A stretch of 64,000 bases of DNA, from positions 59,363 to 123,362 of IMG/VR virus record IMGVR_UViG_3300037336_000053, one strand, 5' to 3'. Position 1 is the first letter of the stretch. Each line of letters begins with the position of its first letter. The notes below the pieces were generated by a model, which was not told the origin of the DNA, made no database searches, and was given only the letters and a program-made list of their open reading frames with translations. The position numbers were made by a program, and so were the translations under genes. Of the stretch, positions 39,092 to 52,029 are shown piece after piece. The stretch is from a virus.

Positions 39092-39138
39092 TGTGATAAA
39101 TCCCTGCTGTTACAGTATTTATCACAATGAGTTATAGA

Positions 39139-45790: not shown

Positions 45791-46807
45791 TTAATTACCG
45801 CCTTTCAATAAGAACTTATTAGAAATTGCTTTGAACGAACATTGCATATCTAGAATCTTAAACACAAGTCCTTCTCGTTCACAACCAACCATTCCCATAA
45901 CTGACTTACCTTCTGCAGACATTAGCAGATCAGCAATGGTAGTTGACTCATCCATTGTGAGGGTTCCAAGAACAGGCACATGTTTAATATCAAACTCATC
46001 AACGAATGCTTTTCGTTCTGCAGGAGTAAAGTACTTGTTGGTATCAATATTGTAGATGTCAAACAAGAAAAAATCTTGTCCTTTGCTCTTATATGGATTA
46101 CCTTGAATACCTTCTCCAATCAGTTCACCTTGCAATGCAATATTACGATTAGCACGACGAAGTTTTAATTCTAGATCATTGGCAACTGCAACTTTCCACA
46201 GGCTGTTAGTTTCGCTTGGCTTGAGATCAAGATTACGTGAACAAACTCCAAACTCTCCATCACGCAAGTAAGCTGTCATTGACGCACCGTCTAGCTTTTC
46301 AGTAATTTCCCAAGCATGCTGTTCTTTAGCCCAGTATGCAAGTTCTTCCTTTAGATTCTGAATACGTTCTTGATCAGTCTTTTGAAGCCAACTTGGAAAC
46401 ATACCTTTAACTTCACCAGCAAGACATGCAGGAATAGGAGCTTCATACTTAGTGATACTAAGGATAGCAGAAACATCCATTCCTACTTCAAGACCAAGAA
46501 CACAAATACCGCCGATGTTTGCTGGCAGCAACAATCCTTGCGATAGTTGTCCACGCAGTCTAATAGTACGCAAGCGTTCGCCTGCAACACCGTCATACAC
46601 TCGCGGCTCGTTGCCTTTGCTGAGGAATGGTGCTAGTGCATGCGGGATCCATGAATCAATTTCACAGTAGACTGCATGGTCGCCAGTAGTATACTTATCG
46701 ATGGTGTCGACTACCCACCAACCATTCACCCGATATGCACAAATTTTATCAGCACCGTTGATAGGTTTAATTTCTTCAATTTTACGGATAGAAGCTAGAT
46801 TACGCAT
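45791..46807 (-). CDS. RNA ligase (Rnl2/DRB0094-like, N-terminal OB domain)
   Basis: EKLDG motif I, QGELIG, FFLFD, REGLV, KAISN. Confidence 0.88.
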   Translation of the reverse strand: MRNLASIRKIEEIKPINGADKICAYRVNGWWVVDTIDKYTTGDHAVYCEIDSWIPHALAPFLSKGNEPRVYDGVAGERLRTIRLRGQLSQGLLLPANIGGICVLGLEVGMDVSAILSITKYEAPIPACLAGEVKGMFPSWLQKTDQERIQNLKEELAYWAKEQHAWEITEKLDGASMTAYLRDGEFGVCSRNLDLKPSETNSLWKVAVANDLELKLRRANRNIALQGELIGEGIQGNPYKSKGQDFFLFDIYNIDTNKYFTPAERKAFVDEFDIKHVPVLGTLTMDESTTIADLLMSAEGKSVMGMVGCEREGLVFKILDMQCSFKAISNKFLLKGGN

Positions 46808-46833
46808 GGTATTCCTTTAAACATTATATTTAT

Positions 46834-46861
46834 ATTATAGCACCTTTTGTACTATTGTCAA
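46834..46861 (-). promoter_or_regulatory. sigma70 promoter for RNA ligase operon
   Basis: TTGACA-N16-TATAAT immediately after tRNA-Phe. Confidence 0.7.
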
Positions 46862-46871
46862 GACTAAAAAT

Positions 46872-46947
46872 TGGTGCTGCCTACAGGAATCGAACCTGTT
46901 TCACCGGGACTTCAATCCGGAGCTATAACCATATCAGCTAAAGCAGC
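46872..46947 (-). tRNA. tRNA-Phe(GAA)
   Basis: Cloverleaf, loop TT-GAA-GT, encoded CCA. Confidence 0.88.
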
Positions 46948-46953
46948 ATATAC

Positions 46954-47029
46954 TGGGGAGAAGTATGGGAATCGAACCCATATTAACGGAATCACAATCC
47001 GTGGTGTTAACCTTTACACTAACGACTCC
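46954..47029 (-). tRNA. tRNA-His(GTG)
   Basis: Loop TT-GTG-AT, G-1:C73, CCA. Confidence 0.9.
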
Positions 47030-47036
47030 ATAAAAC

Positions 47037-47113
47037 TGGTGCGCCTGGAGAGACTCGAACTCCCAACCTGCGGTTTCGAAGACCGACGCTCTAATCCATT
47101 GAGCTACAGGCGC
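47037..47113 (-). tRNA. tRNA-Arg(TCG)
   Basis: Loop CT-TCG-AA, CCA. Confidence 0.92.
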
Positions 47114-47114
47114 T

Positions 47115-47189
47115 TGGTGGTAATGACTGGACTTGAACCAGTAACAGCTTCCTTATGAGGGAAGTGGACTACCATTGTCCTACATTACC
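47115..47189 (-). tRNA. tRNA-Met(CAT), elongator-like (Ile2 not excluded)
   Basis: Loop CT-CAT-AA, acceptor GGTAATG/CATTACC, CCA. Confidence 0.85.
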
Positions 47190-47199
47190 ATACTAAAAC

Positions 47200-47276
47200 T
47201 GGAGTGCGTGACAAGACTTGAACTTGCATAAACGAGATTTGCAATCTCGGGCCTAACCATTCGGCTACACACGCAC
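47200..47276 (-). tRNA. tRNA-Cys(GCA)
   Basis: Loop TT-GCA-AA, U73, CCA; 5' end uncertain by 2 nt. Confidence 0.9.
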
Positions 47277-47283
47277 ATAAAAC

Positions 47284-47357
47284 TGGCAGAGGGTACAAGA
47301 ATCGAACTTGTGACAACGGAATCAAAATCCGCGGTTATACCATTTAACTAACCCCCA
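47284..47357 (-). tRNA. tRNA-Gln(TTG)
   Basis: Loop TT-TTG-AT, U1, CCA. Confidence 0.92.
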
Positions 47358-47361
47358 ACAA

Positions 47362-47435
47362 ACCATATATAAACGTTTTCATTCTGGCCGTTCCAGGGCC
47401 TGCGTTATACGTCTTTGAAAACGTTTATATATGGT
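47362..47435 (-). repeat. 20-bp perfect inverted repeat including the tRNA-Lys ACCA end
   Basis: ACCATATATAAACGTTTTCA / TGAAAACGTTTATATATGGT, 34-nt loop. Confidence 0.9.
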
Positions 47436-47505
47436 AGGACTGCTCGGTAACGATCCGAGTTCTACTGGTTAAAAGCCAGTTGCTTCACCTTAAAGCTTCA
47501 ATCCC
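47432..47505 (-). tRNA. tRNA-Lys(TTT), atypical A8/A54
   Basis: Loop CT-TTT-AA; T-loop ATCGTTA; CCA. Confidence 0.88.
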
Positions 47506-47533
47506 CTATCTTGCCACTCTTGTCACTATTCAT
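47498..47533 (-). CDS. 11-aa micro-ORF MNSDKSGKIGD overlapping the tRNA-Lys 5' end
   Basis: Strong SD AAAGGAG 7 nt before ATG; stop TGA inside the tRNA. Confidence 0.45.
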   Translation of the reverse strand: MNSDKSGKIGD

Positions 47534-47555
47534 GACAGATCTCCTTTAATTAACA

Positions 47556-47632
47556 TGGTACCCGGTGCAAGATTTGAACTTGCGACCCCAACCTTATCAA
47601 GATTGTGCTACTACCAACTGAGCTAACCGGGT
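47556..47632 (-). tRNA. tRNA-Ile(GAT)
   Basis: Loop TT-GAT-AA, CCA. Confidence 0.93.
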
Positions 47633-47637
47633 AAAAT

Positions 47638-47711
47638 TGGCATAGGTGCAGGGATTTGAACCCCGATCGACGGTTTTGGAGACCGCTGTGTTGCCATTAC
47701 ACTACACCCAT
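47638..47711 (-). tRNA. tRNA-Trp(CCA)
   Basis: Loop CT-CCA-AA, G73, CCA. Confidence 0.93.
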
Positions 47712-47733
47712 ATAAAACTTTTCACTTATCCAT

Positions 47734-47770
47734 AAAAAAACCCCTGCTTGTATTTCTACTAAGCAGGGGT
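47734..47770 (-). terminator. Intrinsic terminator (attenuator A)
   Basis: ACCCCTGCTT-11 nt-AAGCAGGGGT followed by a U tract, about 22 nt before tRNA-Trp. Confidence 0.9.
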
Positions 47771-47796
47771 GTATTAATCTTTAACTGACTGTTATG

Positions 47797-47868
47797 TCAA
47801 GATACACTCCTGCCTTCGCTAAACCAGCGAATGCAATGTTGTTTAATCTGTTTCATCATTGTAGTCAT
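47797..47868 (-). CDS. Leader peptide A, MTTMMKQIKQHCIRWFSEGRSVS
   Basis: Manual translation; sits between a consensus promoter and the terminator; 3' codons form an antiterminator strand. Confidence 0.8.
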   Translation of the reverse strand: MTTMMKQIKQHCIRWFSEGRSVS

Positions 47869-47902
47869 TTTTAAATCTCTTTTAATTTCGTTGTATGTGT
47901 TT

Positions 47903-47931
47903 ATTATACACAGTTATTTATCATTTGTCAA
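47903..47931 (-). promoter_or_regulatory. sigma70 consensus promoter of leader A / tRNA block A
   Basis: TTGACA-N17-TATAAT; spacer contains a GATAAATA late-type motif. Confidence 0.88.
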
Positions 47932-47949
47932 CCACTATTAACAATTTAG

Positions 47950-48262
47950 ATAGACTTTTTTAAATAAAAACGGAAGCGAAAAAGCAAGTAATGAACTGTG
48001 CAAAGTGCAGTCGAGATAGCCGTTAGCGTTTCTCACAAGCAAAATACAAAAATCAATATGCACAAGACTCGTATATTTCCAGTTTCAAAGTGCAAACGTT
48101 CTATTAACACTGGAGCATACAAGTACAGACACGTTTCAGGTGTGAGCCAGATTAGTTTATCGTTTAAACTTCAGACGAAGTTGTCAGTAACGACACTGGG
48201 GTCCATCCTCTCTCAATTTCTCTTCCGGGCAGCTTACGCTTCCAACGCATAGCCGCCAAAAC
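47950..48262 (-). ncRNA. Candidate structured RNA / long 3' UTR
   Basis: No minus-strand ORF; several hairpins (GGCGGCT/AGCTGCC, TCCAGT/ACTGGA) and repeated TTGC/TGCAC motifs. Confidence 0.35.
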
Positions 48263-48265
48263 TTT

Positions 48266-48832
48266 TTAAAGGATGTCTGCTTGCGTTAGAAACGACGCAG
48301 TAGTTTCATCCAATTTGATTTCTGCTTTTACATTTAGCTCTAGCAGTGAATCCTGTAATTTTTGTTTCTTACGTTTTAGTCCTGCAACTTCACGTTTGAA
48401 TTCATTGATTTCAGCAGTATCAAAGATGCCGGTATCAATTGTATCGAGTCGACCGTATAGCCGACTCTCGTCTTTGCTGTTGCGAACTTTGTCCAGCTTG
48501 CCTTCAATAACTGCATCACTTACACGAGCTGTCTTGGTTGCCAAACTGTTGACATGTTGAATGTTTTTCTCTAACATTGCAACTTCTGCCAGCATGTCAT
48601 TGATGCCTTGCGCTGCATTTACACTTGCAACTGCTTTGCGGATTTCAAACAATGCTCCCACTAGTTTGGTACGAGTCGTGTTGTTAGAAACAAAACGAGC
48701 ATGAACAGCATTGATTTGATCTTTGCTGTCTTCGTATTCGTTCAACGAAACACTGGCTTGAAAATCAAGTCCTTTGATTGCTTCATTGATTGATAGCTGT
48801 ATAGCATTTGCCTTACGTAGTGTGATTTGCAT
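48266..48832 (-). CDS. Hypothetical coiled-coil protein
   Basis: 188-aa ORF with SD and its own promoter. Confidence 0.75.
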   Translation of the reverse strand: MQITLRKANAIQLSINEAIKGLDFQASVSLNEYEDSKDQINAVHARFVSNNTTRTKLVGALFEIRKAVASVNAAQGINDMLAEVAMLEKNIQHVNSLATKTARVSDAVIEGKLDKVRNSKDESRLYGRLDTIDTGIFDTAEINEFKREVAGLKRKKQKLQDSLLELNVKAEIKLDETTASFLTQADIL

Positions 48833-48858
48833 TTTGATTCCTTTTACCTTATGTATTA

Positions 48859-48887
48859 ATTATAATGTCTTTTCTTGATCTTGTCAA
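48859..48887 (-). promoter_or_regulatory. sigma70 consensus promoter
   Basis: TTGACA-N17-TATAAT. Confidence 0.85.
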
Positions 48888-48899
48888 GCACTTTTTAAT

Positions 48900-48986
48900 T
48901 GGTGGAAGATGATGGTAACGCTCCACGTGCCTTGACTTCACTACCTTTAGGAACGGTTTTACAGACCGCCGTAGTGGGTATCTTCC
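48900..48986 (-). tRNA. Atypical tRNA-Tyr(GTA)-like RNA lacking a D arm
   Basis: Perfect 7-bp acceptor, A73, CCA, loop CT-GTA-AA; only 10 nt between acceptor and anticodon stems. Confidence 0.6.
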
Positions 48987-49012
48987 TTATTTCTTATAAT
49001 CCTATATAAACT

Positions 49013-49086
49013 TGGTACATCGTGACAGGATCGAACTGCCGTCTCTGCCGTGTAAAAGCAGGGCCCTACCATTAGACGAACGATGC
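49013..49086 (-). tRNA. tRNA-Val(TAC)
   Basis: Loop TT-TAC-AC, CCA. Confidence 0.92.
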
Positions 49087-49094
49087 ATTAATTG

Positions 49095-49185
49095 TGGCGG
49101 AAGGCTAGAGAGTCGAACTCTAAAGGCGCTATTAACGCTCGACGCATTTCAAGTGCGGTCCCATCGCCAATTGGGTTGGCCTTCC
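49095..49185 (-). tRNA. tRNA-Ser(TGA)
   Basis: Loop CT-TGA-AA, long variable arm, G73, CCA. Confidence 0.9.
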
Positions 49186-49206
49186 TAAGACAAACAAGAT
49201 ACTCTG

Positions 49207-49282
49207 AAGCGGGGGATGGATTTGAACCAACGATCTCTAGCTTATGAGACTAGTGAGGACGACCAGACTCCTCTACCCCGCA
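49207..49282 (-). tRNA. tRNA-Met(CAT), initiator-like scaffold, CCA not encoded
   Basis: TGCGGGG/CCCCGCT with 1:72 mismatch, loop CT-CAT-AA. Confidence 0.8.
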
Positions 49283-49312
49283 TCAGAATACCCTACTCGC
49301 AATAACTTATAC

Positions 49313-49524
49313 TTACCATTAGTTGTATTGTCTTGTTATGGACAACAATCGCCCTGTTGTCGTTTGCTTTTAACTTGGTAACTAGTATAGAAGCATCGGC
49401 CGATGCCAACTCTACTTTTGTTACTTCAAACTGGATATTCGATGCCTGCAGGACAGAGCGAACATTGCCAGTGCATTAGGCTAGTGGACACAGCCTTTTT
49501 CCAAAACAATACAACTAATGGTAA
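49313..49524 (-). repeat. 19-bp inverted repeat enclosing 174 nt, including the tRNA-Glu 3' end
   Basis: TTACCATTAGTTGTATTGT (49313-49331) / ACAATACAACTAATGGTAA (49506-49524). Confidence 0.88.
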
Positions 49525-49593
49525 CGCTACGGGGAGTCGAACCCCGCTCTTCAGGATGAAAACCTGATGACCTAACCGATAGTCGATAGCGTC
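49519..49593 (-). tRNA. tRNA-Glu(TTC)
   Basis: Loop TT-TTC-AT, CCA. Confidence 0.9.
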
Positions 49594-49603
49594 ATATTAA
49601 AAC

Positions 49604-49678
49604 TGGTGGAGGTTAAGGGGATCGAACCCTTAACTCTGCCTTGCAAAGGCAGCGTGTTCCCATTAGCACTAAACCCCC
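49604..49678 (-). tRNA. tRNA-Ala(TGC)
   Basis: Loop TT-TGC-AA, G3:U70, CCA. Confidence 0.95.
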
Positions 49679-49683
49679 AATTT

Positions 49684-49757
49684 TGGTCTCCGATGCAAGA
49701 ATCGAACTTGCGCTCCTTGGTCCCAAACCAAGAGTGATACCATTTCACCAATCGGAG
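49684..49757 (-). tRNA. tRNA-Pro(TGG)
   Basis: Loop TT-TGG-GA, CCA. Confidence 0.92.
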
Positions 49758-49985
49758 TTATCTAATCTTTCGAATATACTCTAAGCCAATTTCACCGTTT
49801 TGGACTTCAAGTAATGCTGAAATAGGAGCATTAAATTGAGTACCATCATCTTTGTATCTATGTTGCCTTGCAAGCTCTCTTGCTCTTTGCGAAGCAATAA
49901 CTACCATAGTAAACCTATTTCCGATGTTGTCAACAATTTTCTCGTTGTCAAGAAGTCCTATTCGGCTATGTGTCTTGTCATTCAT
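49758..49985 (-). CDS. rpoZ: RNA polymerase omega subunit homolog
   Basis: NRFTMVVIASQRAREL...ALLEVQNGEI matches the RpoZ pattern. Confidence 0.8.
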   Translation of the reverse strand: MNDKTHSRIGLLDNEKIVDNIGNRFTMVVIASQRARELARQHRYKDDGTQFNAPISALLEVQNGEIGLEYIRKIR

Positions 49986-50010
49986 ATGTTCCTTTTGTTG
50001 TTAAAAATAT

Positions 50011-50084
50011 TGGTGCCCCTTGACAGAATCGAACTGCCGTAGCCTGATTACAAAACAGGTGTAATACCATTATACTAAAGGGGC
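50011..50084 (-). tRNA. tRNA-Thr(TGT)
   Basis: Loop TT-TGT-AA, CCA. Confidence 0.92.
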
Positions 50085-50357
50085 GTTAATCTACTTATCT
50101 TCGTCTACTAAGCCCGTTTCCGGATTTGAACGTTTTGTTTCATACTGCTGCATCATCAATTCTTGTAACTCAGCAACATCGACTTCAGGTAATCGAGACC
50201 TCGTTTGATGTAATATGTTTCAATATGCAAACTCATTGTAGGTTGGATTTTGCAACCAACATGCAAGCCGAATATTGGCTCTGTCTTGTCTGTTAGACCA
50301 CTACGAGTTTTTGAGGTAATTACTCCCCAATCTGATTCAAGGTAAATTACTCCTTGC

Positions 50358-50447
50358 TACCATATAGAAACATCCTAAGTTATCGACTGTTCTTGCGAAC
50401 TCCCTGTGAATAACAATTGGGGGAAATAAAGATGTTTCTATATGGTA
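50358..50447 (-). repeat. 17-bp inverted repeat including the tRNA-Glu 3' end
   Basis: TACCATATAGAAACATC / GATGTTTCTATATGGTA, 56-nt loop. Confidence 0.88.
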
Positions 50448-50518
50448 CTCGGTAGGGGATTTGAACCCCTGTAGCCACCGTGAAAGGGTGATGTCCTAGA
50501 CCACTAGACGAACCGAGT
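50443..50518 (-). tRNA. tRNA-Glu(TTC)
   Basis: Loop CT-TTC-AC, CCA. Confidence 0.93.
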
Positions 50519-50627
50519 ACAGTACAATATTAAAGAACATTTACAGAGTTACGATCAACTCTTTTTTAACCTATACGTTTATATACAACATATTTTTCAA
50601 ATAAAGTACACTACTTTTTAATAATGT

Positions 50628-50668
50628 TGGTGAGTAGTTACGGACTCGAACTCTCAATCTTTTCGGCA
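50628..50668 (-). pseudogene. tRNA 3'-half remnant
   Basis: T-arm-like GAGAGTTCGAGTCC plus ACCA, no 5' half; shares GACTCGAACTCTCA with the adjacent tRNA-Leu. Confidence 0.55.
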
Positions 50669-50669
50669 T

Positions 50670-50746
50670 TGGTGCCCTGGGAGAGACTCGAACTCTCAGC
50701 TTACGGCTTCTAAGACCGCTGTGTTTACCAATTTCACCACCGGGGC
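50670..50746 (-). tRNA. tRNA-Leu(TAG) with short variable loop
   Basis: Loop CT-TAG-AA, 5-nt variable loop, A73, CCA. Confidence 0.85.
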
Positions 50747-50837
50747 ATTTTACTCTACTGGCACACTCGTGCTCGTCAAATGTCCGGTGAGCTAACCGGT
50801 TCCTTTACTATGTAGAGTCTTTGAGTGTGCTTTTATA

Positions 50838-50911
50838 TGGTGCCCCGTGACAGAATCGAACTGCCGACCGCTGATTACAAAACAGCAGTTATACCATTTA
50901 ACTAACGGGGC
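50838..50911 (-). tRNA. tRNA-Thr(TGT)
   Basis: Loop TT-TGT-AA, CCA. Confidence 0.92.
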
Positions 50912-50953
50912 CATATTTTACTTATCATACAGACTGTGCTGTATACTTAAAAC

Positions 50954-51027
50954 TGGAGCGGGATAGGAGAATCGAACTCCTGACATTAGATTGGAAATCT
51001 AAGGTAATACCATTTTACGAATCCCGC
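50954..51027 (-). tRNA. tRNA-Gly(TCC)
   Basis: Loop TT-TCC-AA, U73, CCA. Confidence 0.93.
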
Positions 51028-51034
51028 ATAAACT

Positions 51035-51109
51035 TGGCGGTCTCAAGGGGTAACGATCCCCTTCTTCGACAGTGACAGTGTCGTGTGCGTCCATGAACAC
51101 TTTGAGACC
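51035..51109 (-). tRNA. tRNA-Asp(GTC), atypical A8/A54
   Basis: Loop CT-GTC-AC, G73, T-loop ATCGTTA, CCA. Confidence 0.9.
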
Positions 51110-51116
51110 TAATTAT

Positions 51117-51200
51117 TGGTGGAGCGTAATGGAATCGAACCATTCGTGGCTTTCGCCGGAGGATTTACAGTCCCCTGCCACACCTTGTAGCATACACTCC
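51117..51200 (-). tRNA. tRNA-Tyr(GTA)
   Basis: Loop CT-GTA-AA, long variable arm, CCA. Confidence 0.9.
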
Positions 51201-51210
51201 ATCAAATTCT

Positions 51211-51289
51211 TGGCTCCACATCTGGGTGACGATCCCAGCTAACCACGGATTAACAGTCCGGCCCATGCACCACGCTCGGGTTCTGTGGA
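51211..51289 (-). tRNA. tRNA-Asn(GTT), atypical A8/A54
   Basis: Loop CT-GTT-AA, G73, T-loop ATCGTCA, CCA. Confidence 0.88.
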
Positions 51290-51300
51290 ATAAACTTTGC

Positions 51301-51469
51301 TTACAAATACACACTCACAGGAATTGAACCTGCCCACTGAACTTTGAGCCCAGCTGTAATCCGCTACATCTGCCTGGCCTAAGCATTTGTGTGTATGTGT
51401 AAGCAGAGTTTAGTGGTGTATGTTGGTGCATACATCACTCTACTTACAGTGTTAGCCTTGCGACTAACA
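51301..51469 (-). ncRNA. Structured RNA with a tRNA-like T arm
   Basis: Outer stem 51301-14/51389-402, T arm GCAGG-TTCAATT-CCTGT, 10-bp stem 51399-408/51438-47, GCAA-tetraloop hairpin 51450-69. Confidence 0.5.
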
Positions 51470-51522
51470 TATTGTATCTAAATTGTTAAAGAACGTGCAA
51501 GCATTGCTGCTTACTAGTGTTT

Positions 51523-51551
51523 AGTATAACATGTTACGATGAACATGTCAA
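51523..51551 (-). promoter_or_regulatory. sigma70 promoter with palindromic spacer
   Basis: TTGACA-N17-TATACT. Confidence 0.8.
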
Positions 51552-51609
51552 CTGTTATTTTTAATCTTCTTAGCAACTCTAAACTACTGTTCTTTGTTGC
51601 TATGTATTG

Positions 51610-51638
51610 ATTATAACAAGTTACGATGAACTTGTCAA
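51610..51638 (-). promoter_or_regulatory. sigma70 promoter with palindromic spacer
   Basis: TTGACA-N17-TATAAT. Confidence 0.82.
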
Positions 51639-51716
51639 CTAATTTCCTAACTTTTTTGTTGTATTTTTACAACACTTTTTAACCTATTGCCTGCTGTATT
51701 GCTACAGTATGTCACT

Positions 51717-51745
51717 AGTATATGCGAACTTTCTCACTCTGTCAA
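51717..51745 (-). promoter_or_regulatory. sigma70 promoter
   Basis: TTGACA-N17-TATACT. Confidence 0.78.
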
Positions 51746-51759
51746 CTGTTTTTTTGCCT

Positions 51760-51807
51760 TTATTGAACGTTTGCATGTATCCACTTCCAGTATTCTTCTG
51801 CTGTCAT
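51760..51807 (-). CDS. 15-aa micropeptide MTAEEYWKWIHANVQ
   Basis: SD GGAGG right after terminator B; paralog at 5895-5942. Confidence 0.7.
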   Translation of the reverse strand: MTAEEYWKWIHANVQ

Positions 51808-51820
51808 AGTGTGCCTCCAT

Positions 51821-51853
51821 AAAAAAAGCCCCTAACATTTCTGCTAAGGGCTT
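51821..51853 (-). terminator. Intrinsic terminator (attenuator B)
   Basis: AAGCCCTTAGC-AGAAAT-GTTAGGGGCTT plus U tract. Confidence 0.88.
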
Positions 51854-51877
51854 GTAAAATTTAGTAGTACGTTCTAC

Positions 51878-51964
51878 TTAACTTTGCAAACCCCTGCAGG
51901 TATCCGCACCCGGATTACTTGATCCTAGTGTTGAATATTCTACTGTTGTTAGCGTTAGTTTCAT
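51878..51964 (-). CDS. Leader peptide B, MKLTLTTVEYSTLGSSNPGADTCRGLQS
   Basis: Manual translation; AAAGGA upstream; last codons form an antiterminator strand. Confidence 0.75.
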   Translation of the reverse strand: MKLTLTTVEYSTLGSSNPGADTCRGLQS

Positions 51965-52029
51965 TGAACTTACTTTTCCTTTGTTATGCATTTATTTATC
52001 ATCTTAACAAAATATACGCATATAAATGG

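Follow-up and report, generated by a model that had tools for sequence, protein, structure and literature searches.

The analysis reported here concerns a window of 64,000 nucleotides (nt), positions 59,363 to 123,362 of the IMG/VR virus record IMGVR_UViG_3300037336_000053. The record is a 123-kilobase (kb) viral contig (G000) with a G+C content of 38%, judged to be about one third complete, and DNA near-identical to the window is present in many salt-lake metagenomes. Two blocks of tRNA genes, designated A and B, are found in the window, and each of them is preceded by a short open reading frame (ORF) and a terminator. The 28-codon ORF located ahead of block B, hereafter called leader B, is probably part of a functional ribosome-mediated transcription attenuator tuned to the tRNAs encoded downstream, which would report whether the codons served by block B can be decoded. 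All the features of leader B and block B lie on the minus strand. They follow a phosphatase-like gene, which is encoded on the same strand and lacks a terminator of its own, in the order GATAAATA, AAGGA, 28-codon ORF, terminator, 15-codon ORF, three sigma70 promoters, tRNA-like element and block B. The individual features, with the basis of each assignment where it applies, are as follows.

52611-52030, minus strand: phosphatase-like gene, the upstream neighbour of leader B
52000-51993, minus strand: GATAAATA, a promoter-type motif, probably late, that would feed leader B (proposed as a promoter from the copies of the motif in the contig)
51977-51981, minus strand: AAGGA, a Shine-Dalgarno-like element 12 nt before the ATG (read from the sequence)
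51964-51878, minus strand: leader ORF B, 28 codons plus stop (sequence; open frame in relatives)
51899-51958, minus strand: putative sensor core, codons 3-22 (composition and codon tests)
51902-51915, minus strand: small conserved hairpin in codons N-P-G-A-D, stem UCCG/CGGA (predicted)
51841-51899, minus strand: antiterminator hairpin (minimum-energy fold of the 176-nt leader RNA)
51821-51853, minus strand: intrinsic terminator with a stem of 12 base pairs (bp), an AAAU loop and a U-run (predicted, -17.3 kcal/mol)
51760-51807, minus strand: 15-codon ORF with a GGAGG ribosome site (read from the sequence)
51745-51717, 51638-51610 and 51551-51523, minus strand: three consensus sigma70 promoters, 3' of the terminator (promoter prediction)
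51394-51308, minus strand: tRNA-like element heading block B (called as Cys(ACA) by relaxed ARAGORN)
48900-51394, minus strand: tRNA block B (ARAGORN and Rfam)
46807-45791: Rnl-type RNA ligase gene (PHROG 968, E = 2e-80)

Block B is composed, in order, of the tRNA-like element, Asn, Tyr, Asp, Gly, Thr, Leu, Glu, Thr, a small ORF, Pro, Ala, Glu, Met(CAU), Ser, Val and a tRNA-like end element. The tRNA complement listed in the initial annotation of this DNA, which had been made from the sequence alone, was largely recovered with default ARAGORN, which called 12 tRNAs (Tyr, Asp, Gly, two Thr, Leu, two Glu, Pro, Ala, Met(CAU) and Val). The remaining two, Asn(GUU) at 51289-51211 and Ser(UGA) at 49185-49095, were called only with a relaxed threshold, and the latter scores 39.9 bits against the Rfam tRNA-Sec model, under the gathering score of that family. 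The tRNA-like element at 51394-51308 occupies the same place in three relatives (L014, L007 and L194); it could represent either a degenerate tRNA or a signal for processing. Block A contains nine tRNAs and is preceded by its own promoter, a 23-codon ORF (leader A) and a terminator. Its first tRNA is located about 25 nt past this terminator, with no promoter between them. The Rnl-type ligase gene adjoins the last block-A tRNA and carries its own consensus promoter.

The leader B ORF was located at 51964-51878 as initially annotated. Re-reading of the sequence established that codons 3-22 include all eleven of the amino acids served by block B (L, T, V, E, Y, S, G, N, P, A and D; set B) and no others. 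The chance of 6e-6 originally attached to this match ignores multiple testing and had to be given up: considering leader B alone, the probability of such a run in the upstream gap of about 190 nt is about 3e-3. Set B accounts for 57% of the six-frame residues of the contig. A six-frame scan of the entire 123-kb contig returned 29 runs of at least 20 set-B residues, and five runs of 15-23 residues contain all eleven amino acids, leader B among them. The single run of the contig containing all nine residues of the complementary set A is leader A. In a partition test, only one of the 167,960 possible splits of the amino acids into nine and eleven, the real one, gives the runs seen in both leaders, and the runner-up split reaches 30 versus 33 for the real split. 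When 743 small ATG ORFs of 20-40 codons were ranked by the number of block-B tRNA species that they cover, leader B came first (11 versus 9 for the next ORF), and leader A likewise came first for the block-A species. The codon choice of leader B had been described as tracking the block-B anticodons, and this was borne out: under standard wobble, 17 of the 20 core codons are readable by block-B tRNAs, compared to 10.2 expected from phage codon usage (p ~4e-4). Considered jointly, the partition, rank and codon tests make a match between leader and block through chance untenable.

The initial annotation had also remarked that one AGT serine codon of the core finds no tRNA in the window. This proved correct and applies to a GGT codon as well, and an explanation can be added. 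The lineage of the window is devoid of tRNA-Ser(GCU) and tRNA-Gly(GCC) (51200-51035), both of which are retained in block B by relatives (L007 5063-5154; L196), and the two codons are unmatched because these tRNAs were lost. Since the orphan codons match the Ser(GCU) and Gly(GCC) of the relatives, the leader lists tRNA species and not merely amino acids.

The terminator was confirmed, with a stem at 51853-51826 and a T-run reaching 51821. The pairing of the 14-nt segment 51895-51882 with 51859-51846, a partner that overlaps the terminator 5' arm, was confirmed likewise. The predicted fold of the 176-nt leader RNA is much stabler than those of shuffled sequences (z = -4.75), and the antiterminator at 51899-51841 (-34.3 kcal/mol; z = -6.0 versus shuffled upstream arms) is part of its minimum-energy fold. 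The 5' arm of the antiterminator is formed by the last seven codons of the leader and its stop codon (51880-51878), and the 5' arm of the terminator doubles as the antiterminator 3' arm, positions 51853-51841 being common to both hairpins. The predicted terminator and antiterminator folds have similar energies. The antiterminator is transcribed before the terminator and should therefore form by default. As to a 1:2 protector or pause hairpin, a 1:2-like one is predicted in leader A, and leader B shows only a conserved 4-bp hairpin at 51915-51902, which is predicted in most type I and type II leader variants and which might, speculatively, act as an RNA polymerase pause element. The 15-codon ORF at 51807-51760 immediately follows terminator B and precedes the sigma70 promoters, and it is composed of residues from both sets A and B. 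Given its position between terminator and promoters, it is expressible only via read-through. It is kept in some relatives (L146, L164, L191) and missing in others.

Relatives of the locus were retrieved using protein-anchored searches, degenerate-codon patterns and one metagenome scan anchored on the promoter and ribosome site. For leader B, the resulting comparison set comprises 22 distinct full-length variants, and for leader A, seven lineages. Phage C48C1, the best match to the phosphatase-like gene, was rejected for comparison because no tRNA block is present there. Most of the 80 loci with a phosphatase-like gene have either no tRNAs or short arrays devoid of leader, and leaders are restricted to one clade among these loci. 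The leader-B frame is open over 28-31 codons in all 22 variants, the other two frames being stopped in 21 and 22 of them, respectively. The AAGGA element is found in every variant, a count to be read in the light of its inclusion in the search pattern. Three unrelated terminator sequences occur among the variants, each of them with a complementary G-rich arm in the tail of the ORF, and two examples of these pairings are AGGGGTTTG with CAAGCCCTT and GGAGGGTT with AACCTTCC. An antiterminator is predicted in 21 of 21 variants, with z values of -2.1 to -6.0 versus shuffled upstream arms, and the stop codon is always located inside it. A 1-nt indel between the window and most relatives shifts the reading frame of the tail with the pairing retained, and the tail is therefore constrained as RNA and not as peptide. 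Of the 15 replacement residues in the type-I core, 13 belong to set B, versus roughly 65% expected, a difference that is not significant alone. Leader B, its terminator, its antiterminator and the content match are all retained in relatives. Short contigs of relatives lying on 51821/51834-51976 were also found in two marine metatranscriptome runs of a single study; they attest to presence in an RNA library only, carry no information about starts, ends or levels, and are uninformative as to the stretches left uncovered, including the upstream gene. The G001 contig stops before leader B, and an HNH endonuclease gene is found at that place. This HNH-type ORF (L123/L124, 21773-22386) is directly upstream of tRNA-Asn and beside tRNA-like fragments, an arrangement consistent with fast array turnover via homing endonucleases.

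The content of the leaders was then compared with that of the tRNA blocks across lineages. In L196, block B reads 18-19 of the 20 core codons, block A only one; a codon is present for 13 of the 14 block-B tRNA species, the fourteenth being Met(CAU). Leader A covers all nine block-A species both in L196 and in L220. In the incomplete contigs, every detected species has its codon (9/9 in L210, 5/5 in L206 and 7/7 in L170), and a Trp codon in the leader of L210 is accompanied by a tRNA-Trp in the block. The type-III leader (L206) is very different: Thr, Leu, Ser and Asn are abundant in it, and the tRNAs that follow are those for Ser, Thr, Leu, Ser and Asn. A tRNA-Tyr(GUA) is located between Ile and Lys in block A of G001, G002 and L220, where leader A reads ...QQYCIRWF. 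Tyr is thus present in leader A of all three lineages with a block-A tRNA-Tyr and in none of the four without, in which the position is occupied by His or Ile. In G002, where Tyr has moved to block A, leader B contains no Tyr codon and block B no tRNA-Tyr. Finally, six substitutions and one inserted codon separate leader A of L014 from that of the window, and every one of these changes remains inside the nine-residue set (chance ~0.34^7). As a separate observation, leader A of L109 (11210-11700) carries a Lys-to-Thr change, and a second terminator-like hairpin follows the first.

The GATAAATA motif occurs in 12 copies in the contig. Ten of these are located 5-30 nt upstream of ORFs of at least 95 amino acids, three of which are virion-structural or tail-fibre-like, and the remaining pair of copies is found ahead of leaders A and B. 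The copies situated in the window include those at 39123, 21976, 19161, 8948, 47922 and 52000. In G002, 13 of 17 copies are found within 60 nt upstream of an ORF versus a background of 4.5%. Ahead of leader A, the motif sits within the spacer of a perfect sigma70 promoter. From this distribution, GATAAATA is probably a promoter class proper to this phage group, and a late one. A late-type motif had originally been placed at 51973-51980; its actual position is 52000-51993. The accompanying remark that no clear sigma70 promoter precedes leader B is in part resolved, as a member of this gene-upstream, presumably promoter-active class does precede it.

The three sigma70-type promoters reported between terminator B and the tRNAs are present, and such promoters are conserved: every lineage has a sigma70 promoter past the terminator, with one or two in the relatives. 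Since these promoters are real and conserved, the attenuator is not the sole control of block B. Its control would be partial, and perhaps exerted in the late phase only. The promoters at 51638-51610 and 51551-51523 each contain a perfect 7-bp inverted repeat in the spacer (ACAAGTT-N6-AACTTGT and ACATGTT-N6-AACATGT), and the two repeats differ by a compensatory change. They resemble operator sites bound by a dimeric protein and, if they are real operators, the promoters that bypass the attenuator may be regulated too.

The attenuator reading put forward in the initial annotation is supported at the sequence level by the open leader, the terminator, the mutually exclusive antiterminator and the tRNA-tracking content, all of which are conserved. 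What the sequences themselves show is that these elements exist, that they are conserved and that leader content is linked to tRNA content. The translation of the leader, the stalling, the regulated read-through and the timing are what we infer from them, and the proposed mechanism can be briefly summarized as follows. Transcription would start at the phage GATAAATA promoter, probably in the late phase. The nascent RNA would first fold into the antiterminator, the default state being read-through. An undelayed ribosome would pass the 20-codon core, reach the stop codon and melt the 5' arm of the antiterminator, upon which the terminator would form and transcription would end at 51821. A ribosome stalled at any core codon, because the tRNA for that codon, whether of host or phage origin, is scarce, cleaved or uncharged, would leave the antiterminator intact and the polymerase would continue into the small ORF and block B. 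The newly made phage tRNAs would accelerate translation of the leader and close the switch, which would constitute a negative feedback. The sigma70 promoters past the terminator would provide an unconditional supply, presumably early and by the host polymerase, to which the attenuator would add a demand-driven one.

A number of observations weigh against this mechanism. A clear trp-like 1:2 protector hairpin was not found in leader B, and its logic is unlike the textbook case. The spacing between AAGGA and the ATG is 11-12 nt, longer than the 7-10 nt seen at the genes of this phage. Type-I variants show high conservation of their core peptide, which would also be expected of a functional peptide. 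Codon 3 is CTC in most relatives, a codon that Leu(UAG) could read only if its U34 were modified. In every lineage, terminator and tRNAs are separated by one to three strong sigma70 promoters, through which much of the tRNA synthesis may bypass the switch. All the lineages descend from one ancestral module, and the independent events are few. The content match itself is imperfect: Ile is found inside the core in two lineages and Arg in one; leader B of G002 contains two Phe codons and one Trp codon, and its block B has no such tRNAs; leader B of L014 and L220 retains a Tyr codon, and their block B has no Tyr tRNA. Leader A of L109 keeps His, Ile, Gln and Arg, and the block that follows consists of Trp, Cys, Met and Phe only; this leader appears to have outlived most of its array. 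Because tRNA arrays turn over fast, with HNH endonuclease genes among them, some lag between leader and array is to be expected.

Four other explanations of the same features were considered. In the first, the leader and terminator would mainly end or insulate upstream transcripts, or control the 15-codon ORF, and the tRNAs would be produced essentially from the sigma70 promoters. Such a role is unlikely. It would agree with the strong promoters found past the terminator in all lineages, with the upstream gene that runs on the same strand without its own terminator and, in the window, with an ORF equipped with a GGAGG site directly after the terminator. It leaves unexplained, however, the block-B composition of the leader, its codons and its co-variation with the tRNAs; the small downstream ORF is moreover missing in many lineages that have a leader, and leader A, which follows the same design, has its first tRNA only about 25 nt past the terminator with no intervening promoter.

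Alternatively, the switch may be real but sense general translation capacity (amino-acid starvation, tRNA charging or the shutdown accompanying abortive infection) instead of the supply of block-B tRNAs. Under this explanation, which we regard as distinctly unlikely, the antiterminator would form by default when no ribosome is present and any loss of translation would switch the block on. The minimum-energy fold of the naked RNA is the antiterminator and a clear 1:2 protector hairpin was not found, both of which favor such a sensor. Classical attenuators such as trp and his sense charged tRNA, not tRNA abundance, a precedent that counts on the same side. A sensor of general capacity would nevertheless need neither a codon-level list of the block tRNA species that follows tRNA gains and losses, nor two leaders dividing the 20 amino acids exactly like the two blocks.

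It is very improbable that the ORF encodes a functional micropeptide whose likeness to the tRNA set is incidental. The 14-residue peptide centre is nearly invariant in 17 type-I variants, and a G-S-x-N-P-G/A motif is common to types I and II, as expected of such a peptide; this conserved centre nonetheless coincides with the predicted RNA hairpin, the frame of the tail differs between lineages with the RNA pairing retained, types II and III obey the same composition rule with other peptide sequences, and leader A is reshuffled inside its own set. Lastly, a chance ORF preceding an ordinary terminator is almost certainly not the explanation: an open frame of 28 codons is about 17% likely at a stop frequency of 6.1% and set B is abundant among the six-frame residues, but the partition, run, codon, antiterminator, co-variation, ORF-rank and open-frame results all contradict it.

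The ribosome-mediated attenuator proposed for leader B was compared with known regulatory systems. Amino-acid operon attenuators (thr for Thr/Ile, ilvGMEDA for Ile/Val/Leu, and trp, his, leu and pheA for single residues) share with it a short leader of the translated type containing product-related codons, an intrinsic terminator and a competing antiterminator, the choice between which is decided, or would be decided in leader B, by ribosome position. The differences are substantial. The genes behind leader B are tRNA genes and not biosynthetic enzymes. Leader B lists 11 amino acids (and leader A nine) with about one codon per tRNA species, whereas the leaders of amino-acid operons repeat one to three. 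As no clear 1:2 protector was found in leader B, the absence of translation should give read-through, while it gives super-attenuation in amino-acid operons. Leader B is finally carried by a phage and lies behind a putative phage-type promoter. In Escherichia coli pheST, the Phe-rich leader pheM attenuates phenylalanyl-tRNA synthetase; this system is cellular and concerns one amino acid only. Leader-peptide attenuation that adjusts a component of translation via the decoding of its own codons would be common to pheST and leader B. In T-box riboswitches, too, read-through depends on the state of specific tRNAs, but uncharged tRNA is itself bound there, by means of a specifier codon and the T-box loop and with no translation, and leader B instead keeps an ORF of the translated type. 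A cmscan of 46500-52400 with E up to 0.1 returned tRNA-type matches and two chance-level ones (mascRNA-menRNA and Plastid-ycf2); it found no T-box and no curated Rfam leader family (Thr, His, Leu, Trp and similar). Full-text searches, whose reach stops short of the older subscription literature (e.g. the T5 tRNA work of the 1980s), returned no published case of leader-peptide control of phage tRNA genes. With respect to known attenuators, leader B differs in its tRNA-gene cargo, its breadth of 11 amino acids, its proposed default-on logic and its phage setting.

The nearest published accessory tRNA array induced by translational stress is the trn operon of Anabaena, a long array (PMC8421152, PMC10272220). 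It is controlled at the promoter level by direct repeats bound by the repressor TrcR, and attenuators, leader peptides and terminators are unmentioned in the paper that describes this control. An RNA ligase gene is found near the array in both systems, rtcB in the Anabaena trn regulon and the Rnl-type gene at 46807-45791 in the phage. The T5 tRNA region resembles that of the present phage in its dense tRNA arrays, interspersed small ORFs and strong sigma70 promoters. The T5 small ORFs are however of mixed composition, no terminator is annotated between the T5 promoters and the tRNAs, and inspection of that region by eye found no leaders comparable to leader B. A near-identity search of phage genomes with the locus produced short tRNA matches only. 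The gene of 188 amino acids located between the two tRNA blocks has no relative in the phage genomes searched and has three in IMG/VR, none of them with tRNAs.

As a tentative generalization, which we consider possible but somewhat short of an even chance, phages with large tRNA arrays would carry hitherto undescribed 'roll-call' leaders, in which each tRNA species encoded behind the leader is represented by about one codon and which are coupled to an antiterminator/terminator switch. If this is true, each array would be transcribed on demand when any of its tRNAs becomes limiting, and in the present case the two leaders would split all 20 amino acids over two arrays, both driven by the late-type promoter. 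The pair could then serve as a late-infection homeostat or, in concert with the neighbouring RNA ligase, as a tripwire against anticodon nucleases of the host. A codon-by-codon readout of decoding would mean that the phage monitors the tRNA pool and replenishes it on demand. Phage tRNAs would thereby be tied, in a testable manner, to codon-usage mismatch, host tRNA degradation and anticodon-nuclease defences. Leader-peptide attenuation, found in amino-acid operons and with a few synthetases, would be extended to stable-RNA genes, with 11 amino acids sensed together. The parts amount to about 180 nt, and reporter constructs carrying them could be used to sense tRNA supply.

A comparable layout was noticed by eye in the unrelated Caulobacter phage phiCbK (JX100813, L236), in which two units, each made of a small ORF and a terminator ahead of a tRNA block, are located at 2741-2970 and 4542-4703, and in both the ORF is dominated by the amino acids of its block. 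The first small ORF, gp083, precedes with its terminator a Pro, Lys, Leu, Ala and Ser block, and S, T, A, L, P and K account for 40 of its 45 residues. The second contains QFVRQIQVVRNI and, together with its terminator, precedes a Phe, Val, Ile and Gln block. Terminators are annotated in the phiCbK genome paper and attenuation is unmentioned in it. These units suggest that the roll-call design is either widespread or convergent. An unannotated tRNA-Ala was also detected in phiCbK by ARAGORN (L236 3884-3954).

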